A DNA stretch of 58,788 nucleotides, counting the filler, from Sluysia triapertura (Eukaryota), in NCBI GenBank assembly GCA_046118255.1. It is 4 parts of 4 records of this genome, joined end to end, with 100 filler letters (N's around TTAATTAATTAA, not from the genome) between each part and the next. Parts side by side here need not be neighbours in the genome. Positions count along the whole stretch, not along the records: positions 45,789 to 58,788 come from JBJNIA010065850.1; 3 more parts are not named here. One strand, given 5' to 3'. The translations under genes were made by a program, and so were the position numbers. The notes below the pieces were generated by a model. It searched no databases and had not been told where the DNA came from. It saw only the letters and a program-made list of their open reading frames with translations. Numbering within the stretch: position 1 is the first letter of the stretch; every line of letters begins with the position of its first letter. Below, one piece after another: positions 17,116-58,788 of this stretch.

Positions 17116-18960
17116 TAATATTAATAAAAATTCATAGCAATAAATTAGTCAATAGTCCAAATATTTGTGTATATGCTTAAAAATTCTATTTATGTAAATG
17201 CTTAAAACGTCAAGTTCAATAACCTTTGAATTGGTATCTTCATGAGCATCAATTTAATATATACTTTACTTATATTTAAACATCGGAATATTTAACTTTA
17301 ATTTTAAATTATAAAAACTAATTAATATAACTAATTTTTACGTTACGTATGTTGACGTGCTTCGTAACCCTTAATCATAAGAATACTAATAACACTCGCC
17401 ATTGTATACCAATAGTACACTATACTAATTCTAATATTAATTTGTCCATGAGTAAACATTTTTCATTAAGCTATCAAATTAATTTAATTAATTAACAAAT
17501 GTACTATAGTATTTTAACAAATAAAACCTTAGAAATGGTTATATCTTCGTATCCTTCGTTTTGATTCAAATATTTTATACGCTTATTTTGTTATTACAAT
17601 TCATCATAATTCCTCAATGATGTTTATTTTATTCTATTATCATGAGTCATATCCCTTATATTTCTCCTTGTCCCTAGCTAATCCCAACATATACATAAAC
17701 GCAATATCTTCTAATATAAATTAAAATTAAAATTATAGAAAATAAATATAATTGTGCATTTTTATTAAATTATTTCGTTAAAATGTTTAATATTTATGTT
17801 AAACATTAATTTTTTATCAATATTAAAAGGCATACAGTAAAATGAAACTACTAAATCATTCACAAGTCAAAACAACTTGTAAGAAACTATTAGAATGTTT
17901 TGATAGTGGCGCATTACTTGACTGATTGACAACACTATTATTATAAAATAAGTTATTGAAATATCATCTAGTAGTATAATGTAATACAGATCTGCAATCA
18001 ATCTAATGGCATCATAAACAAAAGCTTAAAATAGTTCCTCAGACTTTCTTCTAGTACAATTGTAAGAATTTTCTTTGAACATTACAATCTATAAATTCAT
18101 AAATAATGAATATAAAGCCACAATTACAATGAGTTCTTAAGACTATTAGTTGAATCAGTATTAGTTTTACTGGAATTTATTGAATCTTTATTTTCCCCAT
18201 CCTGTTTTCTTAATTAGCAAAATCATCATCGACGTCATATTTTGGCGTTAAATGATCATCAAAAGATTCTGAAGTTTCAGTATTATTTTCATGAGATCCA
18301 CTACTTCAACACTAATCTTCTAATGTGGTTAGAACTTTTACATTGTCGCGTTCCTCTTCTGATTTTGTTAATAAAACCAAATGTTTTACTACTGTTGCAT
18401 ATGTTCTATCACAACCATTCGATTCCTGCCACTTTCTGAAAGAAACTGATGCATCTACGTAAGCTGCTGAATTGCTGTTAGATTCATTTAGCATTTATAT
18501 TACACTGAACAGTTTTATACTAAATATTATTACACTGATCAGATATTACACTGAATAATTCTAACATTTGGAGTTTGATTCCATCTTTCTGAAGACAATT
18601 CCTTATTGTATGGATTGTGGTGGCCCAACTCATTATCCTAAATTTCGTTATTCATAATACATCAACATAAACAACTGCTCAACCATATAAAATTTAAATC
18701 ACTTAGTACATTAAAATTCACTAAACTCATATTAAAAAATAAAAATTCTAGTGTTTTTCTTAACTTAAATCTATACACTGCAAATTATCTGAGAAGTCTG
18801 TCCGCCTAATATATACGCTTTACATCACTATTGGAGACCTACTATTAGGTTTTCTTAAATATATTAACTAACTGTTTACTTCGAATTAACTTTTAATTAC
18901 TTCGTACCACAACCATTTACTAGGCGTTGTTCAAATAAAGCTTTATATTTTACAAATTGC

Positions 18961-19101
18961 GCAACCGGTATTAAGGTGTTGCTTTGAAAATATATTAGTA
19001 TTTTAGGAAATTACGCAACCCGTATTAAGGTGTTGCTTTTTAAAAACTCTTCGATGAATTTATATATTACAGAACCAGTATTAAGGTGTTGCTTTTGAAA
19101 A
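18961..19101. repeat. Three spaced direct repeats, core GTATTAAGGTGTTGCTTT
   Basis: Cores at 18968, 19022 and 19078 (spacing 54 and 56 nt) with variable AT-rich spacers. Confidence 0.9.
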
Positions 19102-19165
19102 TGAATTTTAGATTAATAAAGAAAAATTACTCAGACGACGTAAAATATATTACAATGGCGTTAAG

Positions 19166-19240
19166 CTCCTGACACCATTTTGTAGAGTTGGTTTCTTGAC
19201 ACCATTTTGTAGTGTTGTACTCATGATACCAATTTGGAGT
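19166..19240 (-). repeat. 27-nt-period triplication of an LTR-end/PBS unit
   Basis: CTCCTGACACCA (19166-77), TTCTTGACACCA (19193-204) and CTCATGATACCA (19220-31), each followed by (T/A)TTTG. Confidence 0.85.
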
Positions 19241-20563
19241 ATTACTATTATTGTAAAAGGTCTTAGATGGATAAATAATTAGGTATAAATGTAATGATTT
19301 AACTACTTTTAGTCTTTTGTCATTTAATATTAATATTAGCTCAGAGTTTAAACATATATATGTCGAAAATTTCGTTTGCTAGAAAGTTGAGGGCAAAATA
19401 ATTTTTAAAAGATACAATTCTTTTAAATTTAGTAATATTGATAAAAAAGAAAGTATTCATAAAACACGAATAATTTATTAATTTGTTTATGAAAGTTAGA
19501 TAAATACGAAGCTGAATCTTTATATTCGAAATTTTTGTACTGCATCCTCCGGAATAACATTGAAATCCAAACTGGAATCTAATCTGAAATAAGACACGAA
19601 ATTAAAAAATATATAAATCAAAGGAATAAAACTTAACTGTTATTTTTTGGGAATATCGAAGAAATTCTAGTTTCGACGTGATTTGGTTCTTACAAACAGT
19701 TTCCAAATTAAAATTTTCCGAAAGGGAATTAGATGATAAGCAAGCTGTCTCCGGTTTTGAATCGACATTCATATGGGGTTTGATGATGTTGTAGAAGTTG
19801 ATTTTGAATAGTATTTTGAATGATGTTTTGAAATTAAATTTTTAAACTGAATATTTGTTTTTAATGTATAAGCTGGATTTGAGGGCGTTTTATTAATTTT
19901 ATCGCGAAAGATAATGTTAAACGATAGCTTAAGAATTGAGAATGCATATGACGATTTTAACGGACAATTATTTGATCTAAAGTTTAGTATTTGGTCGTTC
20001 GGTACTTTTTTGCTTTATTAAATTTAACTGTCATGACACTTTTTATCTTATGAATTTTATAGTAATATTTAGAGTTAATGAAATAGTAATAAATATTGAA
20101 TCGATATTTTAAGTTAATCTTTATAATATACTTCATCTTTATAATCTTAGTAGAAATTTGAACATAAAACTGAAAGATTAAAATCGAGGTTTTAATATAA
20201 AAATTTATTGTTGAACAAACAAAATTTTCAACACAACGTTTTATTTCACAAATTTTAAAAAATTGGGAATTAACAACGACTACATCATAACGATCTTTGT
20301 ATCCAATTTGCCAACATTTCATCATCCAGCAATTCCTATGATCAACTAAAAAGTAGTTATATAAACAAATAAATTTGAAACTAACAAACTCGAAGTTATA
20401 TAGAAATGTATAAAAATTTACCGTGATCTCATTTACATCCTTGAGTAATGCTAAGACATAATGCGACTTAAATTCTGGTTGATTACATTAATGTAGTGGT
20501 TATCATGTTCGACTCCAACTAACTTGCGAACATCCGTCGGCATATTTACCACTTTATCAATTA

Positions 20564-28576: not shown

Positions 28577-30701
28577 CTAAAATTAATATTATTTTAGTTA
28601 CTTTTAACAATCAAAAAATAAAATACAAATGAAAATTCAAAATTAAATGAAAACAAAATTTATTATCAATGATTCAAAAAATTTTACAGAAAATATTTTA
28701 AGCTGTTTTTGTTACTCGAGCATAATATTTTGAAAAATTACTTTTTTCGTATAAAAAATGATTCTATAATTTAATTTTAGTTCATTATTTATTATTTTTC
28801 AATGATTGGAATCGTTTTTTTTGAAACTACTTAAATTCTAAGTAATTTAATTTATTTTATTTAAATTAATTAAATTAATCATGTGAACTTTTGTTAATAT
28901 ATTTATGTAAATTTAAGATTGAAAATTTATTGTGGGTTTCACTCTTATAATTATTTTTGTTCATCATTCAAATTAAACTACTGTGTGTTCATAGGGTGTC
29001 AGAAATTGTGACACCTTAAAAGTTACATTACTTTATGAACACCTTGTTTAGAGTCTGTAGTTCATTATTGAAAATAATTAACTGAAAATAATTTTGATTG
29101 GTTGGAAAAAATAAATAATGAATATTGTTAATGCTTAAGAAATAAGCAATTTACAAATATTTATTTTCATCACGTGTTTGTAGTATTGTGCTTTGTAAAA
29201 TATTTTAATTATTATAAAGCACAAAATCAGATTTTCCATATATTATTCTGCAAAATATCTAATTTATACATAAATATTAGATACGTAATTATTGATTTTC
29301 AATTAGAGTTATCAATGAAAAGTATTGATAAAGTATATTTTGAATACGATAAGACTTATTTATTTGTGCATAGTGTATCACATATCAATTGCAATATAAT
29401 ACTAAATTAATTAAAAGAAGCAGACAGTAATGTACTACTAATAATAATAAATAAATAAATAATATCCAGATGGTAAAACTAAAAGTAAATAATAAATTTT
29501 TCATAATACAAATGATATGTCAAAGTTATATATAGTTTAATAAATAGCTGTATGTAGGAGTAGAATTATATTGAAATTGCATGTAAAAATTAATATATTG
29601 TTAATAGTAATATAAAATTGTCCATTAAAATAGAATAGGAAGTGATTAACTATGGAAGAGTTATTATAGAATTAGATTATTGGTTAATAAAATTAGCAGA
29701 AGAAAGTGCTATATAAGGTGCTTTTCATTATACAATTTCAACAGTGAATTGACTTGTAAATATTTTTGAATAACGCTGCTAATAATATTTTTTGGATAAT
29801 ATCAATTTACTGAAGATTCCGATTGAAGTATAATGGTAATTAGTGAAATATTCTATTTAATCTAAAATTACACTTAAAATTTAAATTGCGAGTGGTTTGT
29901 TTTATCTGTTGTCTTAATTGTAGCTTGGTTATTTTATTCTGATTTGTCTTTTCAGACTAAAGGAGAATTTAAGTTAAAACATTAGATTTAAAAAATTAAA
30001 ATAAGCCACTTTATGTCTTACATGAGTAGAACGCTCATGTCCAGATATAACTAATAAATAAATTACGACACTCTCACATAAGAGTTACTAGACTGAAGAG
30101 ATTTTGCCTAACGAATTTTAGTACATAAATACTAAATAGAAGTTGAAATAAACTTTTTACTGTCTATAAACACGACAGAAATAAGATAATACCACTACAG
30201 TATAAGAATAACAATTTAAGAAACGTTTTCATACTTTCTTTCAATATACCTTCTAAAACCCAAACGGGCATCAGGAAAATAATCATAATAATGAACTTTT
30301 TAAAATTTCATAAAGAATATTAATTTTTTGTGAAATTATTGATTAAGTTGCATTAACGGTTAAAATGAAAGCATAAATGTAGTATCAAGAAAATAGAATA
30401 AAGATATTATGAGGATATTTTTATGTTAACAAAAGTTTCTTTTTTCTAAACTTATATAATTTATCTTTTTCTTTTTCTTAGTTAAAATTAGAACTATGTA
30501 CGACTCCTTCCAGTTTTATATTTATCATGATATACTTTTAATGTTCTTTGATATTTATATTGGTAAAGTCTTTATGTTTGCAATTCTGACTTCACAACTA
30601 CAGACGAAATCCGTACACAATATCCTAAATATTTTGAATCAAAAACAAATGAAGATTGGATTAAATAAATAATTGTCTAAAAAAATTAAAACAAAATTTA
30701 C

Positions 30702-31115
30702 CATTGTTTTTTGAATTGCATAATACGGTGTAGTATATTCGATCATATCTATTATTGGAATAATGTCAAATTCACCAAACGATACTAAATGTTGATCAAT
30801 CAAACAACGAGACAAATAAAAAATTAATGCACCATAACAAGACACACAATTTTCATATTCCCCAAGAACTTCTTTTGGTGAATTAGAAGCATCTTTAATA
30901 ACAATGCTATCTAACTTTAGTGGTATACCGCTTTCCTCACTTAATTTCGATTCAGGCGTGTCATTAAAATAATCACCTTCCAAAAGAAGATTTAATGTTT
31001 TCTCTGCTGTATAAAATTCAGTACCAGGATTAAGATATTCTTTAGAAACAGATGCTGTCACAGTATCTAAGACAAATTTTGTAACCGGTGTTAAATTGTT
31101 TTTTTCAATAAGAAT
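30702..31115 (-). CDS. MSH6: MSH6-like exon A (connector domain II)
   Basis: ILIEKNNLT...LNPGTEFYTAEKTL.LL.EGDYF...SCYGALIFYLSRCLIDQHLVSFGEF...KTM; 414 nt, phase 0/0. Confidence 0.92.
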
Positions 31116-31510: not shown

Positions 31511-32627
31511 GTCCACAGTCCAAATACAATAAGGAGTAAACACACATGTTTACTCCTTATTATGTAAAAAAACATTTATAAAAATTAAAATTTATTTAGT
31601 GGGAATTTTTTGTTTATCGCTTCCTAAGAAAAAGTTTAAAATTAACACCACCAACATTTTTGTCACGCGAAAAATTTATGTTTTTGATTGAATGGTTGCC
31701 TAAACAAGAGATAAAACATCTTAGTAAAAAGTAAAATATTATTTTACAAAATAATTAATCTGTTTATTTTATTAGAGATGCCTTTTTAATAAGATAAACA
31801 ATATGGACTAAAAATAGTTTTCGTAATTATATCGTAACAAAATTATAACATAATTAAAATTAATCGGGCTGGACATATCCATAAGTCACACATGAAACAC
31901 TACATAATTGACAGAACGTTAAAATAAATGTAGTGCACAGAAACGGGCTGGAGTTATTGATACGTGTCCTTTAAAAATACGGCGAACCAGCTATGCGTTA
32001 TGTAGTTAAAAGATTGAGTTCCCAGTTAACAGGTGAAAAATATCTTTAAAATTTCAAAAAAACCGTACAGCCTCATTTTTCTGTAAAGCAAAATATATAA
32101 GCGACCTATCCTTGGTTCAGTATCCTTTTCAAATATTTTGAATACATGTTTATTAATTTTGAATTAAAATTAATTTCTAAAGAATTATTTTATTTTAATT
32201 ATTATTTAATTTTCTTAATTTCTGATATGTCTTAATAGTTTTCCAGTTGCACTCATGGAAAAAACATATGGTAAGAATTATCTCATTCTGTGAGAGTATA
32301 GACACAGTAAGTCTACTTTTGAAAAAAGGGTTCAATTCGGCTTTTAAAATGAAAATTCCCAACAAATGCGATTTAAATCTAATTTCTTAGCACATTAAAT
32401 GTGATACGATTTCTCAATTATTTAACAACACAATTATTTGATTCACAATAAATTCAGAGTTAATTATTGAGACAATAGCATTATTGTAATCATGATTATT
32501 TTATTCAAAGTTAATTTTTTAGTTTTATGAGAAAAACTTTTTAATAAGTCAGATTCAAGACGTGATCAGTAAAATTTCATGAAACTTTAAATTAAAATAC
32601 ATTAAAAAACAAATATTGATATACTAA

Positions 32628-33662
32628 ATGTCTTACGAGAGGTATAAAGATTTAAACAGTCTTAACGATGATTATGATTATGAAGTGTATTATTACGATG
32701 ATAATCATCATCAAACCCATACGTACCCAGAGTCTTATAAGTGTGATCATGTATCAAGTGATATTAAATTGAGAAAGAATCATTGTGATCAATTAGAAAG
32801 AATGCGAAGAGCTGGTATTAAAAGTAGTTATACAGAGTTACATAAGTATATTCAATCCTTGATTGATAATGAGACATTCCCTTCAGTAATGTTACTAAAA
32901 GTTGTTGAATTTCATGAGTTAACTAAAAGAAATAAAAATGTTACTCTAGAAAATAAATACCGTACAATGAAGCAACAACTACAATATCCTTTATGTCAAC
33001 GTAATACTGATAATAGCATCCCAACGTCCTTACCTGATATTTTTAGTTCAAATATTGTTCACAGTGTCGTTCTAAACGCAGCACGAACTAATCATTCAAT
33101 CTCAAATGTAATTCAAACGCCTAATATTTTGATTGGACCAATTAGTAATAATCAAATTTTTTCGTCTACTCATACTCATTCAAGATCATTTAATGTGACA
33201 AGTGATAATGGAAAATTTCATGTTGATAAATCACGTTTTATCAAATTCGCATTATGTCTCTATGAAACCTCAATTACAGGCCAATACGTCAAGAATGGAA
33301 AATCATGTCATTATGCACACGGATTATATGAATTGGTATCAATTCCTAGAGTCAATGCAATTAGTCTTCCGTACTCACAAATTGAAGGATACGAATTTAA
33401 GGTAACAACACAGAAGTACTGTCACAGTAAAAACTTTTATAAAGTAGTTTTTAATATTATTAAACATTTATTACTTTTTGTTCGAGATTTTTATAATTTT
33501 GTTATTCTTTTTAGAAAAATCAATGGTAATACAGTAATAGCATATTCAAGTGCGAATAAACATTCTTGGCCATCAACTTTTCATGTTATTAAGCAAATTT
33601 TTAATATTAGACTTTTTGGTTACATTAATAAACAATTTAGACGTTATTTTTGTTTAGTGTGA
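32628..33662 (+). CDS. Max/Mlx-like bHLH-zipper protein with a degenerate TIS11-type CCCH zinc finger
   Basis: 344-aa uninterrupted ORF. [40 protein letters not shown] parallels Max [49 protein letters not shown]...[14 protein letters not shown] parallels TIS11 SRYKTELC...YGAKCQFAHGLGEL. A possible intron lies at 33402-33514. Confidence 0.7.
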   Translation: [344 protein letters not shown]

Positions 33663-34547: not shown

Positions 34548-34571
34548 GTTCAAATCCCACTTCTGACACCA
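34548..34571 (-). promoter_or_regulatory. tRNA-Leu primer-binding site (24 nt) between two ~50-nt direct repeats
   Basis: Plus strand GTTCAAATCCCACTTCTGACACCA equals the T-loop, 3' end and CCA of eukaryotic tRNA-Leu(CAA/CAG). The minus strand reads CCCCAAAT-TGGTGTCAGAAGTGGGAT, like the junction at 51050-51073. Confidence 0.8.
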
Positions 34572-34719
34572 ATTTGGGGTTGATGAAAATTTATTGTGAA
34601 AACTAATTATTCTTAAATTTACAACAAAATTACTTCCATTAGTGATAATCTTTATATGACTTAACTTATATATTAAAATATTTTTTAATATTGAAAATAG
34701 TAATTTACATTTAAATAAA

Positions 34720-34819: not shown

Positions 34820-35947
34820 CAATAGGGGTAATTATCATAAATATTTGTAAAGTTAATAATTATTTATAAAAATGACTATTTGATTCGTAAAAATGTATTT
34901 TTATCCATTATATTTTAAATTTAAATATGGGTGACGTAAAATATGGGTTCGACAATAATTATTATTATTTCAGTCATTATTATTATAACCATTATCACTA
35001 GTGTCATTAATTTTCAATACTGTTATTCCGTCATCTTTATTTGAGTCTCACCTGTCACCAGTTGACAGTATTTAATTGAATTCAATAAAAATAATTTTGC
35101 AACTGTTAACTGCCTGTGTTCCAATCCGAGATACTAGTGCTTTTCGTTGTTGTTGTGTGACTGGACACCCAATCATTGTTAATTTTTTTGTACAGACTAA
35201 TTAGTAGTCACAATAAACCAATAATGTTGAAGTTATAATAATAAGTGTGCCATTATTATTTTTAAGTAGCGTAGTTATAAATTAGTGTCGGAAAATTGAT
35301 ATATTTATCATTATACAGTCCAGAAGCATTAAATAGAATTATAAGCATGAAAAATTATCCAGATCGAAAATTTCAGACAAATATCAATTAAAATTTTTCT
35401 TAATCGTCTCAAGCAAGATTTAACGACTAATCACTTATTTTAATTTTGAAAATGAATTCGATATAATGTACATGTACGTATAAAAATTCTCTCTCGACGA
35501 AAACCTGTGAAGCTTATTCAACTAATAAATTAATTTTAAACGTGCAAGAAGTTTCTCATTTTAATTCTAAATCGATGTCTCCTTTTTGGACATTTCCTAA
35601 ATACAAAAATATGAGTATATCTAATGATTAAATTTATGATGATAATATTGATTTTTCGCCCGATTTAATGAAGGTTAAACTTAAATAATTAAAACTCTTT
35701 TGATCTTAGGCCATTTTGCGTCACTTTATTTCGTTTACATACTGTACAATTGTGAAATTTATTAATTGAGTTAATATTTAATTAATAATTTACGTTACTA
35801 TTAATAAAATGATCAAGACTTCTTTTTATGCGCTTTTTTGTTACTACTATGTTAGCATTTAAAATTAAAATAAAAATTAAAATCAATATAAATATAAAAA
35901 ATATATTTATAAGTATTAAAAAATATCAAATATTTTATTACAATAAA

Positions 35948-45788: not shown

Positions 45789-46196
45789 TTCAACAAAATA
45801 ATTGTTATTCAAGAAATGTTTTATAACTTATTGGTACGTGATGGAGATGAACCATTTCATATTACTCGAAATCCCAATAGGATACCAAGGTTAAATAATT
45901 TAGATGAAACCAAAAATTAAGGAAAATTACTAACTATGTTGAATCAAAATAAATGCAATTTTGATAATCTTAAAGTTAATGTGGACGATGTATATCAGAT
46001 TATTTTATCTAAGAAATAGAGACTTATCAAAGACGAATAATGGTAACAAGGAATTACACATTAATAGGATCAACTTGTTTCACGACCTTTTGACTAATAT
46101 TAGTATTTATTCTAGTGTAGAATTACTTAGTTGTTCTGTTAGTTATGAATTTATTTATATAATTATTTTTTAGTTGAATCAATTTTAGATTGGAAA

Positions 46197-47387
46197 ATGG
46201 AACGCTGGGCGGTCAGATTAGAAAACTTTTACATTATTTGTGTTTTTAATAAAAATCTTGTAAATATAAGTTTAATGTATTTTAACATTCTTTATTCAAT
46301 TAAACCTTATATAAATATAATATTATCAATAAACAACTCTTATATTAAACCAGATAATGAAATTATAAAAAAACAAGTATATTGTGATCATGGAGTTAAA
46401 AGAATTAACAATTACGAATCATTATATTAGTGATAGTACAAATTACTGTCACTTTAATAAAGAATTTAAGATAATCCCAGGGAATGTATTGAGTAAGGAG
46501 AACAACATTAAAATATTAAATCTTAAACTACGCTATTATAAATCCAATTCATCTAATATACTTTCATTTTCACATTCAGCTTCCAATACTCTTTACTCTA
46601 TTGAATTTGACAATACGCCCTCAACTTCACCTTACATCACAATCATAACCATATATCTTAACCTTCCTTGTGTAAAGATTAAATATAAACCTTCGATTAT
46701 AAAATCAATTAATAAATCAAATTATATAATATATTCGTTCATAAATCAGTACTACAAAATTTACACTATAAAATGTGCAAATTTATAAAACCGAATATCT
46801 CGAATTTCGTAATTATGATACGGAAGTTAGAGTCAAAGTATTACAAAATGTGTCTAAAACCACCTCGACTTAACTTTAGTTCTTGGAACGTACAGGAATA
46901 TTAAATTAATAATTTGGTAAACCCTATTGCTATATTCACTGATTTTTTGGCTAACGAGAAGCGGCATATTCTTGTCAGAATATATGTAGCACCAGAAAAA
47001 TTAGAACAATTACATTTTGCATTAAAAGGAACGCGGAAATACCTATCATTATCGGAAATACTGAAAACTATCCAGCTCTATTAATACTAATTTTAGCTGC
47101 AAAATTATTTATCATTGCTCTATCAATAGTTATACTAGTAATAATTATGTTTGTGTCGAACAGATGTAGATATCCGGGCTTGCCTCCAAATAATGACAAT
47201 GTTGGTCGGTATACTATTCCACATAGAAATATTTTTGAGCCACTACCAGGATTTCCACCTCATGTTTATGAATACGTAACAGGTAACTATTTACAATTAA
47301 TGTATGGCAGTTGGCAAATGATAAGCTCACAGTCAGTCATGATAGAATGTTTATATATGACGCGTATAGTTACGTACATACAAAATC

Positions 47388-47392
<5 letters not shown>
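46197..47392 (+). pseudogene. Broken coding-like region for a putative membrane-anchored protein
   Basis: Successive overlapping + strand ORFs. A hydrophobic stretch ALLILILAAKLFIIALSIVILVIIMFV lies in frame just upstream of the Pro-rich ORF 47147-47392. No family recognised. Confidence 0.35.

Positions 47393-47440
<48 letters not shown>
47387..47440. repeat. (AAT)n microsatellite
   Basis: Direct reading. Confidence 0.95.
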
Positions 47441-48229
47441 GATTACATTTAAATCACTTCAGAAAACCATATATGCAAAAGTAAAAAAAGAGTTGTTTGA
47501 CTAATTTGTGTAGACACGGATTGAATGTTAGTTAATATGCAAGATATCGGGTGATGATTTGCAATGGTCTTGTAGAAAATCAATTATTTAATATTACTCT
47601 GGAGTTAGAAATCGAATATGAACCAAATCAAAATTCGAAAATTATATCAATACACAATTATAGGATTATAACAAAACATAATATTTTAACTATAAAATTT
47701 CCAATGTTATTATATAGGGAAAGAAACAATTTCGTAAGAATAACAAACCCTTTAACGGAAAATGCTATATTAATTGGTTGCGAAATAAATAAAAAGAACC
47801 CACTCAAGAAAGATTTCGATGAACTATTTGACAAAGAACATCTCTATGCGCTAATACTTCCTAAAACTAGTATTCATCTATTTTTGCACCAGAACGTAAT
47901 CTAATATGTATTGAAGTATGGTGTGGCAAGGCCTTTTTAGATTTAAATATTAGAAATTAATTATAAATTTTCAACTTTTTTTATTTTAAAATTTATATTA
48001 AAAAAGTAAAAAACTGCCCTAATATAAAAAACAATTAAAATTTAACTTTAAAACAATTAACACAATATTAAACTTCTTAATTAATGAACTAGGCTTAAGG
48101 CCTTTTAAAGATAACAATTTTAACAAAATATCAACAAGGTTTACAAGTTTATTAACAAAACAATAAAATGTTGTAAAAACATATAATCATACTTATGATA
48201 ATTGCAAAAAGTTGGTGGCGGGTATAAGT

Positions 48230-51057
48230 TGTAGTGGACAACCTTTATAACTGTTAAATTTTAAAAGAAAAAATTAATTAAACCTTCAACACTTTGATAT
48301 TCACACACTTACTTCCTACACACTTACAAAACAGTTCATTTGCCTAAACTAAGCCAGATTCACAATCTCATAATATACAAACCACAGTTACATCTAATAC
48401 CATCAACTTACACCAACAGATCTATCACAAACATGTAACTCGACATTCATAACAACCAATTAATATCCACATTTGAAATTATCTACTTTACACCTTCGAA
48501 TCAATTACAACACCTTAAGTTCAACACTTGTCATTGTATGGTCACCAACAACACAATACAATACCATTCTAAAACATCAAATAAACAAATCACATAAAAC
48601 ATTGCACATTAAAATTTCAAATATACCAAGAGTTGTATTATAATTTACCTTTTCACATTTACCAAACTACTCTCTTCTAAATAGGCCTTTTATTCACGAT
48701 CTTCCAATATTCAAATGTCGTTCTCAATCATGAATTTAAATCACCATCTAAGAACTCATTCTAACATTCTCCATTTCATTCCACGACATAAATCATCTAT
48801 CTTATCTTGAAACGTTAACCACACATATAAATTCATTTAAAGCAATCTCTACTCAAAAATTTTAATTTCAAACACATTTTAAATTTATTGCAATATGTCA
48901 AGAAACCTAGAAGAATTAAAGGAAGATCGTGTGCAGTTTTAAAGAATTCAGCAATTTATGTCAATTAATAACCATAATAACCATTTTTTGTCGCCGTTGT
49001 TACAGAATCCAATTCAACTATTTTTTCAGATCTAGAATATGTTAAGAATTCAATGAAAGCGACAGAAAGATTGTGTTAAGAAAAAGACAAGAAATTTATG
49101 CAATTTTTAATATTTTCGCAGTAAAATAATATTAATAATAATAACATTGTTGCTATTATTGTTGTTATAAAATTTTATTAATTTAATTAATTTACTATAA
49201 AATAACAAAAATTGTTTCCACCATCACCATTGTTGACATTATTCATTACTGTCAACAGATTTATGTCAACACTGATGATGGCTAATCATTCATTCATATT
49301 ACTGGCCATCCAACCAGAATTAAATTTATTATATTTAGTTAAACAATTCTGGTTGGATGACCAATCACTGGTCATCATCTGAAAAAATGAATTAAAAAAT
49401 GAAAATATAAATTTTTGAACTAGATAGCAAAACAAAAATAAATTATTATTGTCTCTTGTTGTTATGTTATAGATATAGTTGCTCAAATTTCAAATGATAC
49501 ATAGCTATTACACTTACCTGAACGTATAGTTTATAATATGAAATTAAACCGTATACAAGAACAAAATGTTAATGCAGACTTTCATAAGCAAATCGAATGC
49601 AAAAACTCGGTTCAATTAATTTTAAATACCACTCAAGATGTTTATTCTGGTAAAATTAATGACAATCTCTCTTCAGTTGTTACCAATAAAAAGTATTAAA
49701 GCATTATTTTTCATGCTCAATTATCAAGAATGTTATAAAGTTTATAAATGTATTAATTCTAATTTAATATCTATTTTGGGCGTATATTCGTTTATGTATT
49801 CTAATAATGAATAAGTTGATTCACTTGATAATTATGAGTCTATTATGATGCTGTCTCCTATTTCTGATCTAGATGACTTAGAAAAATTGAAAATAAATTC
49901 TAGTATAATTATTGATTGTAGAGTTCATTCAGCGGTGATTCAAAATTTAGAACGTCACAATTTTATAAATACAATGGAACCTGTTTCTCTAAATCAATGT
50001 CTCGTAAAGTCTAGTTACTGTAATCGATCTAGTATTACGGATTCGAAATCGTACCCATTGAGTTACATTAGCAAATTAATGTATAATCTGGCTGAAAGAT
50101 TTAGTAAATGTATTTCGTTTAAGGTCAATGAACAATTTCTTTTATTTGTTCAGTTAGTTTTGCATCCATGTACTGATGTTTTCAAATCATCTTATAATCA
50201 TGAAACATGTTGTCATGTTCCAACTAACTTAGTTAGTTCAGACACCAAAACGAAAGTTGAAGATTGTCAAACTATTTCAAAGTAGTGATAATTGTTGTAG
50301 CTATGAACCTGCATGTTTCGGTAACGAATTTTTAAAATTGCATTGTTTTGATTATTAGAAAGTAAATTCATTAACTAGAGTTTTACATGCAACGTGTGCA
50401 ACACCAGTAATTACGTATATTTTCCTTCTTCAAAAATGTATTCAGTTATTCAAAAGTCTGTGCAATATTCATCATATAAAAAGACTTTCATCTATATATT
50501 TAGTAATCAATAATTTTGAAATTTTGTTACAATTGGATCATCTCTATGCTCAGAATTATCGTAATAAACCAAATGATATTAAAAAAATAAGACTAATGCT
50601 AAAGTTATGCGTTCATCTCTACAATCTCTACAATCTATTGGATAAACATAATGAATTCAAGGGTCATAAACGAGAAATTAAAAACTTAAATTTTTGTCTT
50701 ATTCAATTATTTTATAAGTTATACATACATTTTTCTTCAGATGATCCTTTTGAAGTGCAGCGGATTGGGATACATTAGGATACGGTATCAAAATTAATAG
50801 TTTTTGTCTCTACGTTAAATAAAAGTTTCGTATTTACTTATACGTTGTTTATTCTTTTATATAATTTGTTTAAAATTAAGTTATGTGGTATTAATAATAT
50901 AAGTAAAGATTGTATGAAATTTATCTTAAATTCTAAAAGAAGTTTTTACCAATTAAGAATAAGTTCAATAACGTATACACAAACATACTTATATCTACCG
51001 AAGAATAATTTTATAAATTTAAATTCAATTTATTTTAATTATAATAAAACCCCACCA
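48230..51057 (+). repeat. Putative 5' LTR (~2.8 kb)
   Basis: Starts TGTAGTGGACAAC and ends CCCCACCA 3 nt before the PBS. Shares TTCGAATCAATTACAACAC, AAATATACCAAGAGTTGTAT and CAACACTGATGATGGCTA collinearly with the 3' LTR up to ~49370. Homology beyond that point is not demonstrable. Confidence 0.7.
49845..50285 (+). CDS. Unknown 146-aa Cys/Ser-rich ORF inside the putative 5' LTR (part of a broken coding tract 49538-50778)
   Basis: ORF track, with flanking same-strand ORFs at 49538-49699 and 50524-50778. Confidence 0.45.
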   Translation: MMLSPISDLDDLEKLKINSSIIIDCRVHSAVIQNLERHNFINTMEPVSLNQCLVKSSYCNRSSITDSKSYPLSYISKLMYNLAERFSKCISFKVNEQFLLFVQLVLHPCTDVFKSSYNHETCCHVPTNLVSSDTKTKVEDCQTISK

Positions 51058-51060
51058 AAT

Positions 51061-51073
51061 TGGTGTCAGGAGT
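51061..51073 (+). promoter_or_regulatory. Primer-binding site, tRNA-Leu
   Basis: TGGTGTCAGGAGT is complementary to the ACTCCTGACACCA 3' end of eukaryotic tRNA-Leu(CAG). Confidence 0.85.
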
Positions 51074-51500
51074 TTAAGAGAACCTTGCTGTATCCTATGT
51101 AAGTCATGAAGCCAAGCCTTATTATTTATATATTTAAATGCATAAATTCTTTATGTAGCAAATGTGATCTTATCGTAGAGAGATATGCACATAAATATAA
51201 TTTTTATAATAAAAGTCTTAACAACAGCAATACACATATCTTTCGCGATAACTTTATAGACAAATCATATGTAATAATATAATTATACCTAAGATTGCTA
51301 CTAAAATCATTTTGTATGTAATGAATTCTTTAAAAATTGTAATACTATTATACCAACATCTATAGTTATAAATTCTTCCAATAATAATAACAATTATAAT
51401 AGTTACCAACAAAATACATTCACCAAGTCCATTAAATTTTTTAAATATTAAATATTTTTTAACATAATTCCAAGTCATTTAAAAAATCAAAAGAACAAAC

Positions 51501-53028
51501 ATGTTACTTTTCAATTACAAAACAACTCTTTTCATGTTACACCCTCACGTAATTCAATACGCACTAAGCATAAATAAAAGAAAACTAAATCTAAGAAAAC
51601 AGGAAAAACTTATACACTTAAACAGTGTTATCAAACCATCTGTAAACACAACATCTAACAAAAATGGTAATATCAGTCTACACAACAATATCATCACTCA
51701 ACCACTAAACAAAACATTTCCACCTTCACTATTCGAAACATATATTAAACATTCAGCGCAAGAGATTTCATACAATAACATTAAACCTCCACTAAAACAA
51801 CGAAACAACAAGAAAAACAATACACGGGCACAAAACTCCGATTTTAAACAATTAAAAGATACCACAATACAACTTCTGCTACCCAACACAAACAATGAAC
51901 AACTTCACGAAACACAAAACTATGCTATCAACTCTTCCAATAACATTGAACGTCCACAATATTTTTCAAATAGCGAAAATAACAACATGCCTCCACATAA
52001 TAATAATTCAGAATAATTAAAACAAAACACAACACAATTTTTACCACATAAAACGAACAATAAATCATCTTACAAACATCAAACTCAAAACAACTTCATC
52101 AACTCACCTCATAATCACAATCAGTACAAAACTCCATTGAAGCAACAAATATTCATACGTATAATAATGAAACCAAACAACTAACAAACCATACAACATC
52201 AACCTTATTTCTCAAAATAAACAATAAATCTTCTCACGACAGTAAAACACAAAAATCTTTTAAACCATACACCATACCTTTTGTCTGGACAACATGACTC
52301 ATAAAATTAATAAAATTTTAAGTTATAGGTTTTCTACTACCCCAACCACACCTCTGATTTACACTAAAAACGCAGTCCTAGACAAAAATAACAAAACAAA
52401 AAGGGGTAATCAACCACAAACTACTCTACATTATAAATCACAATTCACCTGGGCTCCTAATACGTATAAAATAAAGGATAAAAAATCCTTCGCTCAAGTC
52501 TGTAAACAAGGTCCCCAAATTTAATGTGCCATTATGGCCAATACAAATCAAAGGATCATTGAATCCGATTTAAAAAAGCAATTCCAAACAAATTAACACG
52601 TTCAAGGATGTATCGAAGCAATCATCCAAAAATGCAAATCTTAAAATCAATATACAAGACCAAAAGACCAGTAAGTCTAATTTCAAACAAGTCAATACTT
52701 CTAAGAATACACTCAATCAAACGTTAAAACATAAACAACAAAATCGTTGAACGAAATCAAAAACAATTCAATACTCAAAACAAAGAACAAAAAAATTATT
52801 CTAATAATCAGACAATTCAAGTCAAAAAATCAAACAAAACAAAACGTATTATTTCAAACGAAACCATAGATCAGAACAATCATATCAAAACAATAACAAG
52901 CCGCTCAATTCTCAAACAGAAACAAATTTTTACCAGGAACAATAATCGACTCAAACACGCCATTTGAGCGACACGTGTGCACTAACATCAACGCAGCCAC
53001 CAATTCGAAAACCCGAAATAACAAAACA
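51501..53028 (+). pseudogene. Long N/Q/K/T-rich leader ORF (fragmented) upstream of gag
   Basis: ORFs 51501-52016 and 52294-52524 plus intervening frames share a low-complexity composition and strand skew. Confidence 0.5.
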
Positions 53029-53214
53029 ATAAATATAATAATAAAATGCATAGCGTGCAATATAAATTCGCGCCTTAAAATCAAAACTCCCACCCTATTA
53101 CATAGGTTAAGTAAACACCCTCAGGCATGGTTTACTTATCAGGCTCAACCGTTATGTGATTACGAAATTCCACACGGAGCAATTATATCAGTTAATCACC
53201 AACTACCTGGCGGC
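53029..53214 (+). CDS. Ubiquitin-like domain ending in LPGG, in frame with the start of gag
   Basis: INIIIKCI...WFTYQAQPLCDYEIPHGAIISVNHQLPGG versus ubiquitin MQIFVKTL...[29 protein letters not shown]. Confidence 0.65.
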
Positions 53215-54080
53215 ACTGAACATGATCAATTAACAAATATCAGTACTCCTTCGTCATCTCAATTTTTCTTGGTCGATACTGGTTCTCCAAGCACATGGTT
53301 TTGGTTGCTGAAGCCATGTTCAAAACTAGTGCGATTAAACATCAAACTAAAAAGTTTAATCGCACATTAGCAATGTTGCCGCAGGAACTATTAGATAAGA
53401 TTAGCCCAAAAATTCAAGCGTGTATTGCTTCAAAATCTCCGTATGACGAACTCATGCAAATAGTCGTACACAATACCGCCCAAATTCGGAAAAAGTCTTT
53501 CAAAACTACTTTAAGGTACAAACATTATGTACCATTTCACCTTCCGAATTTTTGGCATAAATAAAAACGGACTTAGCACCCTTCGGTTGTGACATCGACG
53601 AAAATCGTGATGTTTTAAAAAGATTATTCCTCGATACTATGCCTCTTACAGTTCAAGGCATACTCGTAGGAATTCAAAATACTAAAATCGACGAACTGGC
53701 TAAGATCGCCGATAACATTATTGCTGTATGGAACAAGGACCATCAACAACCTCTGTACGCAATGAACGATTCTTCTTCAAACAGCCAGAAATACATAACA
53801 ACAACAATAACCAACAACGAAGCACAGAACCTTCTGTTACAAGTCTAAAATCTCACGAAGCAGGTCGCAGACCTTACAAAAATTTTATTCTCAAAATCAA
53901 GAGAGAACTCACCAACAAGAAGAACAAGTTCTCCCACATTCTCAACGGGTTCATCCAACTCAAATAAATCTATTAAAAATAAAACACCCTTTAACGGAAT
54001 CTGCTACTATAATAACAGATTCCAACAACAGGTTAAATCTTGCTTACTAGGATGTAGATTTCCAAACAAATCTACAAATC
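53215..54080 (+). pseudogene. gag: gag (capsid and nucleocapsid), frameshifted
   Basis: PSTWF/LVAEAMF...TKKF...LPQE...PYDEL, then LFL..MP..VQ.IL...IDELAKIADNI, and the knuckle GICYYNNRF....KSC..GC (~53996). These resemble CsRn1-lineage gag. Confidence 0.8.
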
Positions 54081-54269
54081 TACAAATCTAACAATCAAAA
54101 ACTTGTGCGTATACCATGCAAATTTTCAAAAAAGCTCCAAAAGATGCATGGATACTGCATCCACTTTAAACACAATTTAAAGTCCCCATCAAAAAACTGA
54201 AATTGCTAGACCGAAACACTTGGCAATTAATGGTATTTTCACTGTGCCGATCACTTTCACTGATTTCAA

Positions 54270-56910
54270 ATACTCCAAATTGGATTATCTAATTGACCTC
54301 AACGCTTTATCAGAAACACACCGCAGACATGTTCCTTTCTTACAGCAGCTAACGGAACAGCTATTGCCTGCTATGGCTCGAGACAATTACAATTCAAATT
54401 GTCACACTTCAATAAAATCTTCGAATGGACTTTTCTAATTACTGCAGTTCAACAACCGATAACAGGAGCCGATTTTCTAACCCATTACAACCTCCTAGTC
54501 GATTTCCACAACAAAACTTTAACACAGTCCTTCTAACACCTAAAAAATATAAAAATTAAATTAGAGGATCTCAACAGTAACAATATAGATCAATATTTAC
54601 AACAAATTCACCCCAAATTACTACTCGAACAATTCAATCCAGAATATGTTCCTAAATTCGAACACTTTATAAAAACTATACCTATACCACCATGCAGACA
54701 AAGACGACGAGAACTAGCTCAGAAAATACGTTCTCAGGCAGAGACAGAATTCCTTGAAATGGAAAGACAAGGAATAGTGCGACGCTCTTCTTCCTCATGG
54801 GCCTCACCTCTGCAAATCGTCAAAGAGAAAGATGGAACGTGGTGACTACAGAATGCTTAGTAAAGTCACTCTTCCAGACGCATATCCTATGCCACTCATA
54901 ACAGACATCTTTCATAGATTCACTGGTTGTACAATATTCTCATCAATAGACCTTGCAAAATCATACCATCAAATCCCAGTACATACTGAGGATATACCAA
55001 AAACAGCCGTAACAACTCCTTTCGGTCTGTTTGAGTATTTACGCATGCCTTTCGGTCTAAGAAATGCAGCACAAACTTTCCAGCGTCACATTGAGAAAGT
55101 TCTTCAAGGCTTAACTTTCACCACAGCCTACATTGATGATATCATAATTTCAAACGACACCAAACACATCTGGAACAAGTATTCCAACGACTATCCGACA
55201 ATAATTTATTAATTAAAATTAACAAATGTCAATTTTTCAAGAATAAAATAACTTTTCTAGGCCACAATATATCTGTTGACGGGATAGAACCACTGGAAAC
55301 CCGTACAACAGCAATAAGAGACTTTCCACAATCCAAAACAGTTACACAGATGAAAAGTTTCTTGGGCCTAGTTAATTATTGTCGACGCTTTATCCCGAAA
55401 CTATCAGAAATAATAGCACCGTTAACAATTCTATCATCGGGAAAGAAAAATCAGCAAATCAATTGGAATACTAAATCTCTGGAATCCTTCGAACAAACAA
55501 AACAAGAAATTATGAAGATGGAAAGTTTAGCATTTCCACAACAACATTTAACGTTCACCTTAACAAGTGACGCTTCAAATACAGCAATAGGTGCGATACT
55601 AACACAAAATCAACAAGAAACAACTCCCGTAAACTTTCTGCACAACAAACTAGATATTCGCATTGACCATGAATTACTAGCAATCTATCTTTCCGTTAAA
55701 CATTTTGAGTATCTGTTACTCCCAGCGCAATTTACGCTCAGAACAGACACCAAACCGTTGTTGCACATCTTTACAATTAAAAAACCCACTCCAAGACAAC
55801 AACGACACATCAGCTACTTGTCCCAATTCAACTTTAACATAGAATTCATCCCGGGACAAGAAAATGTGGTCGCCGATTTTCCAGTCGAGTTCCGGTCAAT
55901 ATTCACTCTCGAGGAGTTACAAAACAATCCACGATCTAGTCTAGAAATTTCCAAATTTTCAACAAAATCATCATTACAAAATGGAATTTTCTTTGACTAT
56001 CAATTATCTGGTACTTCTCGACCTGTGCTAGGACAAACGCTCCGGATCAAAGCTGTCGAACATATTCACAATATGACACATGCCGGAGCTAAGGCCACTT
56101 ATGAATAACTACACTCAAAAGTAGTATGGCCTTCAATGCGCCAAGACATCAAACACTGGTGTAAAGCCTGTTTGACTTGTCAATTGGTGAAAATACAAAA
56201 AAACATAAAATCTCACACGCCAACTCTTCGATACCATACAAATGGATATAGTCGGACCACTACCACAATCTCGTGGTTACATTTACATTTTAACTATATT
56301 GGACCGACACAGCAGATGGCCAATCAGATCATTTACAACAGACACCATATCCAGAATCTTAATAACAAACTGGATTTCACGTTTCGTTGTACCCAAAAGA
56401 ATTATCACTGATCAAGGAGCTCAGTTCGAATCTAGCCTCTTCAACAATTTACTCAAACAACTTGGCAGCGCTAGACTACGAACAATCTAATGGTATGATA
56501 GAGAGATTTCATAGAACTCTAAAAAACTTCTTGCGCGCATTATCAATAAATCATGATTGGATCGGTGCCTTACCCCTAATTCTATTAGGCTGGCGCAATA
56601 TCCCTCATTCTTCAACATGATATTCACCAGCTCAAATTGTATTAAGAACCAACACCAGATTACCCTTTGAATTATTCGAAAATGATAATCCTACAGAAAA
56701 AAATATATTAACCTCCTTTGCGGCAATATTTTAATGACCTAAACAAATCAACACGTCACAATGAGGTTCCTCACATTTTTATACCAAAAAACATCTTAGA
56801 CAGCAAATTCGTGTGGCTCAAAACAGAAAATCCAAAATCTCTTCAACCAAGATACACCGGTCCCTACAAAGTCACTCAGTTTAATCAAAACCTGCAACAA
56901 TGCTAGTTGA
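54270..56910 (+). pseudogene. pol: pol (protease, RT, RNase H, integrase), frameshifted
   Basis: PR: YLID.., GADFL.HYNLLVD. RT: SSSWASPL.IVK, DAYPMP, IDLAKSYHQIP, MPFGLRNAAQTFQR, YIDD. RH: SDASNTAIGAIL, ELLAIY, TD.KPL. IN: H...H..C..C, DIVGPLP, TDQGAQFES, SNGMIERFHRTLK. Confidence 0.96.
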
Positions 56911-57037
56911 AGAATATTCTCATAATTCAACAACAAGAAAATCAGTAACGTTTAACAAAACCGCTACCTTTCTAAACGAATCCAAATGAAGGTACCAGAT
57001 TCATTTTAGAAATAAACACATATCGCTTCGCGTCTTC

Positions 57038-57049
57038 AGAGGGGGCTGA
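57038..57049 (+). promoter_or_regulatory. Polypurine tract
   Basis: AGAGGGGGCTGA immediately before the TG of the 3' LTR. Confidence 0.85.
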
Positions 57050-58788
57050 TGTAGTGGCCAACTTTCATAACCACTAAAAATTTATTAAAAATCAAATTAT
57101 TTTCACAATTTCACAACAGCTAAATCACAATCATATTCAACACTACCAATTTACATTAACTAATTCACCAGAAATATTACTCGACATTCACAATAATCAA
57201 ACAACAAACTCATTCGAAATAAACCATCTAATACTTTCAAACCCTTCATTTTACACTACGCTTTGGAAATCAACATTTAATAATCGATAACATTCATTTA
57301 ATAGTTTATTTGCTTTAACCAAATTACAATCATAATCACATAACACATAACACATAATTACATCTAATTCCATTCTACAACACTAATAAATCTACACGAA
57401 ACATATAAAACACCTACTTCACAACTTCGAATCAATTACAACACTTCAAACTTACTACTAATCCATGCATAATCACCAAAATTATCAAAAACATCAAATA
57501 GACAAACCAGACAAAACATAGTATAATAACATCTTAAATATACCAAGAGTTGTATCATAATTTTTCTTCTTGATTCATTAAATTACAACCTTCTCAATAA
57601 GCCTTTTACCCACGATATTTCAATACGTAAGTCTTGTTTTCAAATACAAACCCTAATTAAATTCGAAAAGCTCATATTAACATTCTTTATTTCAATTCAA
57701 GACTCAAATCATTATTATATCTTCAAAAAGGTTAATTATACTTAACAATTCTTTCAAAACAATTATTATTCAGAAATTTAGTTTCAAATACACTTTAATT
57801 TAATTCAACACATTAAAATCCTTCAAGAAGTTTAGGAAAATCTAATACAGTTTTAAAGAATTCAATGAAATAGCAACGATGTTATCGTTGCAGTTCCATT
57901 CAGTTTTGTCAACTTTTATATTTTATTTAACTTTTTATATGTAAGAACCAAGAATGAGAAGATCGTGTACATTTTGTTTTAAAAAAAGAGAAAGGAAAGT
58001 TTATGTATTAATTCGTTTTTTTTCTTTAGTAATAATAACAATAACAATACTGTCGTTGTTATTATTATTCCCATTAATTAATTAATTATTATTATTAAAA
58101 TTTTAATGCATCTTATAAAGTAGTCACCACCATCACCAATGTTGACGTTATAATCATGACCATCAGTATCTTGACAACACTGATGATGGCTATCCTTACC
58201 TAATTTTGTTCTCCACAATTTAATCACCAATTTTTACATGTCACCCAATCAGAGCTGATATTGTTAAATGTTCTGTCCTGAAGCTCTGATTGGGTGACCA
58301 ATCAGCCATTATCGTACAAATACAATTTTATAATTTTTAATTAAAAAGTACAAAAGAGGAAAACAACACAAGAAGTAACGGTAACAAATTTTCAAAAAGA
58401 TACCAAAATTTACGAAACGACAGAATAAAAAATTTGGAGTATATACTATCGAAAACTCAAATCCTCTCGATCGCGGCACTAAATTAGATTAGTATTATAA
58501 CATGCTTTTGAAAGGGAAATTCGTTTTAAGTGAAATTTTTAAAGCCTATAATGATATATTATCATTCATTGATATGTCCAATGATGTTAAACCACACATT
58601 CATAACTTCCACCAAGAAATCGAATCTGATGAAACAAATCATATGGGAGAATTAAGAAGAATGATTAAAACCATTGATGATCCTAACCACTTATTATATC
58701 TTATTAATCTTACTTTAGATCCAGCTTTTAGTTATAGTTTTAATTCAACATGGTATTATCTTATGATAATTAAAGATGATTATGTTGT
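57050..58788 (+). repeat. 3' LTR (end not seen within the window)
   Basis: Starts TGTAGTGGCCAAC after the PPT; collinear with the 5' LTR to ~58305. Confidence 0.8.
58502..58788 (+). CDS. Unknown ORF, open to the window end, downstream of the 3' LTR hairpins
   Basis: ATG at 58502: MLLKGKFVLSEIFKAYNDILSFIDMSNDVKPHIHNFHQEIESDETNHMGELRRMIKTIDDPNH..., 95 codons without a stop. Not in the ORF track because it is unterminated. Confidence 0.5.
   Translation, partial: MLLKGKFVLSEIFKAYNDILSFIDMSNDVKPHIHNFHQEIESDETNHMGELRRMIKTIDDPNHLLYLINLTLDPAFSYSFNSTWYYLMIIKDDYV

Follow-up and report, generated by a model that had tools for sequence, protein, structure and literature searches.

Conserved paired hairpins beside a CCAAT box in the long terminal repeats of a gypsy-like retrotransposon of Sluysia triapertura: a candidate pair of antisense small-RNA precursors

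Introduction

MicroRNAs encoded in long terminal repeats (LTRs) are already known from foamy viruses, and LTR palindromes are known as small-RNA sources in plant Sireviruses, where they form small-RNA hotspots (PMC4728375). In bovine and simian foamy virus (BFV and SFV), sequencing has shown the cassettes to be RNA polymerase III (Pol III) units that carry A and B boxes together with a U-run terminator (PMC3993851, PMC7693620), and viral Pol III boxes can be non-canonical (PMC3993851). Here, we analysed a 58,788-nt stretch of AT-rich eukaryotic DNA with gaps from Sluysia triapertura (GCA_046118255.1), referred to below as the window, in which 4 parts are joined with 100 N of filler between parts. 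Its positions 45,789 to 58,788, taken from JBJNIA010065850.1, contain a retrotransposon of apparent Ty3/gypsy type together with both of its LTR-type repeats. Each repeat holds three hairpins in the order 0, 1 and 2; the last of these, about 1.1-1.3 kb into the repeat, ends in a CCAAT box. An initial annotation had noticed hairpin 2 and offered several explanations for it, from a selected RNA or DNA structure to arm-to-arm conversion. We find that hairpin 2 is real and selected. Our tentative interpretation, possible on the sequence evidence, is that hairpins 1 and 2 are an antisense microRNA-like small-RNA precursor pair beside, and overlapping, a working CCAAT box; that the pairing acts in RNA in one way or another seems to us fairly probable.

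Results

The core of hairpin 2 proved to be exactly as annotated: a perfect 15-bp stem with a 23-nt loop in the 5' LTR and a perfect 17-bp stem with a 25-nt loop in the 3' LTR, the arms being exact reverse complements in each case (Table 1). Between the two LTRs the stems differ at 4 of 15 pairs, and all four differences are mirrored, with the same pair positions changed in both arms and every change a transition; on the left arm of the 5' LTR these are positions 49309, 49314, 49319 and 49320. The chance of hitting the identical four positions in both arms is 1/1365, and under a model of independent drift at 30% divergence the probability that two perfect stems would carry at least 4 mirrored changes is about 3e-8. 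Since the stems were chosen for their perfection, these figures are upper bounds on surprise. Perfect 15-bp stems with loops of 3-60 nt are expected 0.08 times in the whole window, and among the 17 matches listed no others combined a GC-containing perfect stem of at least 15 bp with a loop longer than 4 nt. A further perfect 15-bp stem with a 4-nt loop, at 31528-31561, is unrelated to the LTR hairpins. Folding of hairpin 2 gave z-scores of -4.6 to -6.3 on both strands of both copies, and the stems lengthen to about 21-23 pairs when wobbles are allowed. On the minus strand, 13 of the 20 pairs are invariant, 1 is changed on one side and 4 on both, and 2 are broken in the 3' copy. The word CCAATCA stands in the same register in both copies. 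It was said to follow both stems, which is right for the 5' LTR, where it comes after one base (49361), but not for the 3' LTR, where it overlaps the last stem base (58298).

Two full LTR copies, starting at 48230 (5') and 57050 (3'), could be aligned for covariation, with no third one usable. A profile built from them found no significant third copy in the window; its match at 35157-35188 (E 0.88; folding z +0.3 to -2.0) was not used for covariation. The region 35030-35200 resembles a decayed version of the hairpin and CCAAT layout, with CCAAT at 35121 and 35169. Variation within the family was read from 374 contigs of the public run X1, aligned to 49270-49400 at 80% likeness; the kind of this run is unrecorded, it is possibly the window's own source, and 47% of sampled window words are present in it. 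In hairpin 2, variants reaching at least 4% touched 1 of the 22 positions in the left arm, 17 of the 24 in the loop and 1 of the 23 in the right arm (2/45 for the arms together; Fisher p 7.5e-9 for arm versus loop, with positions that are not independent). The two arm variants lie at 49302 and 49352, and with either of them the minus strand still pairs. At 49352 the variant is the letter found in the 3' LTR; its mirror variant was not listed, and as the arms may be cross-placed, no linkage is read from it. A one-base deletion at 49306 (5%) lies outside the variant count. Summed depth was about 9,000 over the left arm and about 20,000 over the right arm together with the CCAAT box; in the middle of the loop it was 1,500-2,900, and at the ends 100-400, with single long contigs at depth 10-20. 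This implies that many family copies exist, although summed depth is not a copy number. A two-arm pattern search of viral contigs returned nothing, and 20 metagenome loci matching an 18-base motif were dismissed as chance, none being similar beyond the motif.

The arms are thus almost invariant across the family contigs while the loops are free, and the mirrored changes lie far beyond chance, which bears out the selected structure proposed in the annotation. An unselected palindrome, kept perfect by template switching between its arms, would account for mirrored changes of any kind without a function, and only two full copies are aligned. However, arm copying preserves symmetry and not sequence; the fixed arm letters beside free loops and variable flanks argue for selection on the arms and largely refute this explanation. 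Conversion alone would, moreover, have erased four C-A positions that are common to both LTRs, and it leaves unexplained the conservation of the hairpin 1 arms described below. We thus consider an unselected palindrome very improbable.

Hairpin 1 lies 14 nt upstream of hairpin 2 in one copy and 41 nt in the other. Its arms are the same at 40 of 44 bases in both LTRs (91%, against a background of 66%), and its loops are unrelated. On the minus strand, 17 of its 22 pairs are invariant, none is changed on both sides and 5 are unpaired in one or both copies. In both hairpins the conserved block has a sharp edge, at which the last 10/10 bases are identical and the next 6/15. A wobble-tolerant scan of the whole window gave 8 rows with GC-containing arms, and 6 of them were the four hairpins 1 and 2. 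The segment holding both hairpins folded with z-scores of -9.1 and -6.0 on the minus strand and -6.6 and -5.4 on the plus strand in shuffling controls. In a two-sequence structure comparison 37/500 shuffles reached the observed value, this control being weak with two sequences. The word CTGATGA inside hairpin 1 had suggested a hammerhead ribozyme, which was rejected for want of an Rfam hit.

We then considered which molecule and strand the pairing may serve. Where transitions leave a pair other than Watson-Crick, it reads C-A on the plus strand, and so G-U on the minus, at 6 positions, 4 of them in both LTRs, and G-T at 1; this lean of wobbles to the antisense strand (6 to 1) is not significant and gives a hint only. 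On the minus strand, the 5' arms of both hairpins start with U at the sharp conservation edge. Within the antisense 5' arm of hairpin 2 the LTR differences fall at positions 11, 16, 21 and 22, outside the seed, and microRNA family members tend to differ at such positions. The suggestion of a pre-miRNA-sized hairpin held, with 66-71 nt, 20-22 pairs and arms of about 22 nt fitting precursors of 55-70 nt, among which longer loops occur in invertebrates (PMC12553114). Under the microRNA-like reading, selection for base-pairing in RNA, rather than in DNA, would keep the paired hairpins in the LTR-type ends. They would be read from the antisense strand and cut by a Dicer-type enzyme, and the product would be the arm lying 5' on that strand, consistent with the U start in both hairpins and with the differences outside the seed. 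Such RNAs, fully complementary to the sense RNA of the element, could limit the element or act on host mRNAs.

Several observations weigh against this reading. The plus strand is G-poor and C/A-rich, so that composition alone gives a split of at least 6/7 with p 0.13-0.55; over the greater part of the LTR it is the minus strand that folds better, and hairpin 0 has no minus-strand preference. Hairpin 1 lacks any two-sided change, and 3 of its inner pairs are broken in the 3' copy. A canonical animal microRNA has a 30-35 bp stem with a basal stem of about 10 bp (PMC12553114); here there is no continuous 30-35 bp stem, and the only basal helices predicted run across bulges and are not shared by the two copies. 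Rfam yielded no family at the gathering cut-off and 6 weak hits to microRNA models, the best at 30.8 bits against 71.8. The LTRs differ in the sequence lying upstream on the minus strand, where no conserved antisense promoter can be seen. Consensus box patterns gave no full B-box match near either module, and there is no T-run that both copies share at the hairpins. At its invariant edge hairpin 2 matches the NF-Y logo exactly, which explains that edge without RNA. The alignments themselves are also limiting, with only two full copies aligned and a contig alignment that favours copies with conserved arms and may have placed left arms on the right arm.

A microRNA-like reading nevertheless survives the failed base-stem test, because SFV hairpins are processed without a canonical base. 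Neither a Pol III dumbbell of the foamy virus kind nor a Pol III cassette like that of BLV fits these hairpins, given the missing B box and consistent T-run and the unequal spacers; only in the 5' copy is hairpin 1 followed on the minus strand by a T-run. Seed matches in the window, self included, show nothing (5 plus and 3 minus for hairpin 2; 3 plus and 1 minus for hairpin 1). An apparent likeness between miR-219 and the first bases of the antisense arm of hairpin 2 was discarded, not being supported by Rfam.

The pairing evidence would also suit hairpins that act uncut, as structural signals in the long RNA of the element (the 3' end of the sense genomic RNA, a short leader or an antisense RNA). 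Their binding partner would be Gag, reverse transcriptase or a host protein, and their role would lie in packaging, export, strand transfer or recombination. Conservation in LTRs is known to be caused by stem-loops (PMC3601003, PMC2664473). On the plus strand, too, hairpin 2 has perfect core stems (z -5.8 and -6.3), and sequence switches from shared to unrelated at the edge of the hairpin. Hairpin 1 of the 3' LTR, in contrast, does not rise above background on the plus strand (z -1.4; 0.0 in context). Protein-bound hairpins such as the trans-activation response (TAR) element usually conserve a loop or bulge; in the present hairpins it is the arm letters that are fixed, and the loops vary freely. 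Known LTR stem-loops map to R/U5 just after the start site and not upstream of a CCAAT box (PMC3601003, PMC2664473). The annotation's TAR-like RNA is doubtful for similar reasons: the loop is not conserved, and the CCAAT box and TATA-like word would put the likely sense start downstream of the hairpin. We thus regard an uncut structural signal as unlikely.

The CCAAT box is unchanged between the two LTRs and fits the NF-Y logo RRCCAATSR (PMC11802806). The box probably has a role as DNA as well, as the driver of the reading frame in the LTR tail, to judge from its setting: TATA-like words follow 45 nt and 31 nt downstream in the two repeats, and a reading frame starts 180-200 nt downstream. This raises the alternative that the arms themselves are paired protein-binding sites in double-stranded DNA, belonging to an LTR promoter beside the NF-Y box, with the mirroring due to occasional arm-to-arm copying in reverse transcription that was fixed by selection, or to a subfamily-specific binder encoded by the element. 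In its favour, both LTRs match NF-Y perfectly at the hairpin edge and have the downstream TATA-like words and reading frame just described. CCAAT typically stands at -60/-100 (PMC11802806), which would place the hairpins upstream of the sense start; LTR similarity stops right after the box; Sirevirus palindromes sit in a cis-regulatory region (PMC4728375); and the decayed look-alike, at 35110-35180, retains CCAAT and barely folds. Against it, the arms are not NF-Y sites, since their internal words read CCAAC in the 5' LTR and in at least 93% of aligned depth, and only the box at the edge fits the logo; the symmetric CCAAT-type site of the annotation is disfavoured on the same grounds. PMC7793273 had provided a TALE-CCAAT lead. 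The DECA-CCAAT composite (GAnnGAC, 11 bp upstream of CCAAT) has 1 match in the window, inside integrase, and none at the modules. Host factors common to both subfamilies would not force mirrored changes, and the four asymmetries common to the LTRs would not outlast frequent copying. Nor would a cruciform easily accommodate C-A mismatches and loops of 23-25 nt. Paired DNA sites are, in our view, somewhat unlikely as the explanation of the arms, but like the uncut structural signal they come close to the antisense precursor pair in probability.

The features surrounding the hairpins identify their carrier, on sequence criteria, as a decayed Ty3/gypsy LTR retrotransposon with gag followed by reverse transcriptase, RNase H and integrase in broken frames. 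Direct repeats start with TG, their first 8 bases being identical; a purine tract stands before the 3' repeat, and a primer site after the 5' repeat, which has a CA-type terminus directly before the match. The pol fragments scored E 1.8e-17 (RVT_1), 3.8e-17 (RT_RNaseH) and 7.5e-11 (rve) in Pfam, and the closest relatives of the reverse transcriptase-RNase H region are 47% identical. Judging from the gag domain and LTR start only, the element may belong to the CsRn1 clade. Querying viral contigs with its reverse transcriptase gave 10 candidates and 0 confirmed loci.

Table 1. Features of the element and its LTR-type repeats (window positions; z, folding z-score by strand).
Feature	Position	Strand	Remarks
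5' LTR-type repeat	48230-51059	+	about 2.83 kb; start sharp, end inferred from primer-site match
Hairpin 0, 5' LTR	49128-49160	.	AT-rich inverted repeat; weak; z -1.9 (+), -3.0 (-)
Hairpin 1, 5' LTR	49218-49284	-	67 nt; missed in the initial annotation; z -4.1 (+), -4.9 (-)
Hairpin 2, 5' LTR	49299-49367	-	69 nt; core stem 49307-49321 / 49345-49359
CCAAT box, 5' LTR	49359-49367	+	fits NF-Y logo; right edge of hairpin 2
TATA-like word	49406-49412	+	45 nt after CCAAT box; register not kept in 3' repeat
Orphan reading frame(s), broken	49815-51099	+	5' LTR tail; 156, 139 and 107 codons
AATAAA	51043-51048	+	just before inferred LTR end
Primer-binding-site-like match	51061-51073	+	just after AATAAA and CA-type end
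gag-like fragments	53226-53845	+	Pfam DUF7041, E 1.7e-6
pol fragments	54297-56617	+	several frames; reverse transcriptase, RNase H, integrase; gypsy order
Polypurine tract	57038-57045	+	precedes 3' repeat
3' LTR-type repeat	57050-58788	+	runs off window end
Hairpin 0, 3' LTR	58030-58067	.	perfect 12-bp AT-rich stem; z -7.2 (+), -4.8 (-)
Hairpin 1, 3' LTR	58127-58192	-	66 nt; z -1.4 (+), -2.6 (-)
Hairpin 2, 3' LTR	58234-58304	-	71 nt; core stem 58240-58256 / 58282-58298
CCAAT box, 3' LTR	58296-58304	+	right edge of hairpin 2
Open frame, 3' LTR tail	58493-58786	+	unrelated to 5' tail; cut by window end

The primer site at 51061 presumably matches tRNA-Leu. Longer versions of it occur on the minus strand near 34555-34575 and 19165-19230, and one of these two further matches directly follows a terminus mirroring the LTR start. 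At 19160-19240 (minus), three tandem primer-site-like matches were observed, two of them directly after LTR-type CA ends, with an LTR-type start at 20492. The long match at 34555-34600 (minus) comes with an LTR-type end like that at 51050 and adjoins a gap.

The two repeats resemble each other from about 48330 to 49370 of the 5' copy, with 66% identity over 1,098 aligned columns, and this similarity stops just after the CCAAT box. Comparison of the pair thus shows related heads and unrelated tails; the 3' end and any target-site duplication lie beyond the window. The LTR label given in the annotation is supported, but the hairpin changes probably did not arise after the insertion of one element. 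Post-insertion decay was rejected as the origin of the divergence in view of a 322-codon open pol frame and block-like conservation, since such a frame would rarely survive that much neutral change. The repeats are probably those of two subfamilies brought together and not one aged pair, and the mirrored hairpin changes would therefore record subfamily evolution. The heads (48330-48960 and 57150-57870) are non-coding, have only 5-7% G on the plus strand and are the deepest-covered portion of the LTR in run X1. In run X1 the region 47000-48200, which precedes the 5' LTR, is repeated as well.

The 3' tail frame had no tblastx or blastn match to the 5' tail, and the tail frames gave no Pfam hit at cut-off, 0 homologs among 184 candidates and no Atlas hit. 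Both tails are covered many times over by run X1 contigs and are therefore repeated DNA, not unique flank. The unrelated frames of the tails (49400-51059 and 58310-58788), directly behind a shared hairpin-CCAAT block, apparently represent a cargo gene carried within the LTR, a different one in each subfamily.

Elsewhere in the window, orphan coding stretches at 19786-20487 (minus) and 46122-46732 (plus) are related (tblastx E 3.5e-5). A 344-codon frame at 32628-33662 has a weak Unkempt-like CCCH finger (E 5.9e-7, below cut-off) and a faint HLH match, and a MutS-like host exon lies at 30639-31115 (minus). We also observed a tRNA-like prediction with undefined anticodon at 16-87 and a 54-56 nt repeat in three tandem copies at 18949-19100.

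Discussion

The window links the hairpin-CCAAT-cargo layout to a gypsy LTR with gag-pol, purine tract and primer site, which provides the module with a mover and a far end. If small RNAs are indeed made from the hairpins, this would be a retrotransposon regulating itself or its host with purpose-built RNAs. A wider picture, which we think unlikely to hold as a whole, would have a gypsy lineage encode a selected antisense microRNA-like cluster, one seed of which coincides with the CCAAT box, while the LTR carries exchangeable cargo and solo LTRs spread all of it. Searches of open-access full text, which did not extend to subscription papers or repeat databases, turned up no account of hairpin pairs that are selected and covary in the LTR of an animal gypsy element.

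Among described systems, the DECA-CCAAT composite (bioRxiv 10.64898/2026.02.16.706105) likewise has a conserved block directly upstream of a CCAAT box, but neither module here has its GAnnGAC core at 9-13 bp. The R-region stem-loops of retroviral LTRs, such as TAR of human immunodeficiency virus (PMC2664473, PMC3601003), share stem conservation inside an LTR; they lie just after the start site and have a conserved crown, whereas the hairpins found here have free loops and stand upstream of the CCAAT box. Long LTRs with coding cargo are paralleled by the reading frames in LTRs of HML-type endogenous retroviruses (PMC2664473). Extra coding cargo in gypsy elements is described for bdelloid ORF3 (PMC5408684) and planarian Burro (PMC6431247); ORF3 follows pol and the Burro cargo is internal, while here the frame appears in the LTR tail and differs between the repeats.

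The foamy virus cassettes resemble our locus in having two close pre-miRNA-sized hairpins in a long LTR and no canonical base stem. In contrast to them, no Pol III signals are conserved here, the spacer varies from 14 to 41 nt and the hairpins are known from sequence alone. Sirevirus LTRs (PMC4728375) likewise carry several palindromes in their regulatory region that can form hairpins, keep their structure among families and have been proposed as a source of miRNA-like small RNAs. Sireviruses, however, are plant Ty1/copia elements, and the letters of their palindromes vary among family members; in this animal gypsy element the arms are almost invariant within the family and carry mirrored changes between subfamilies.
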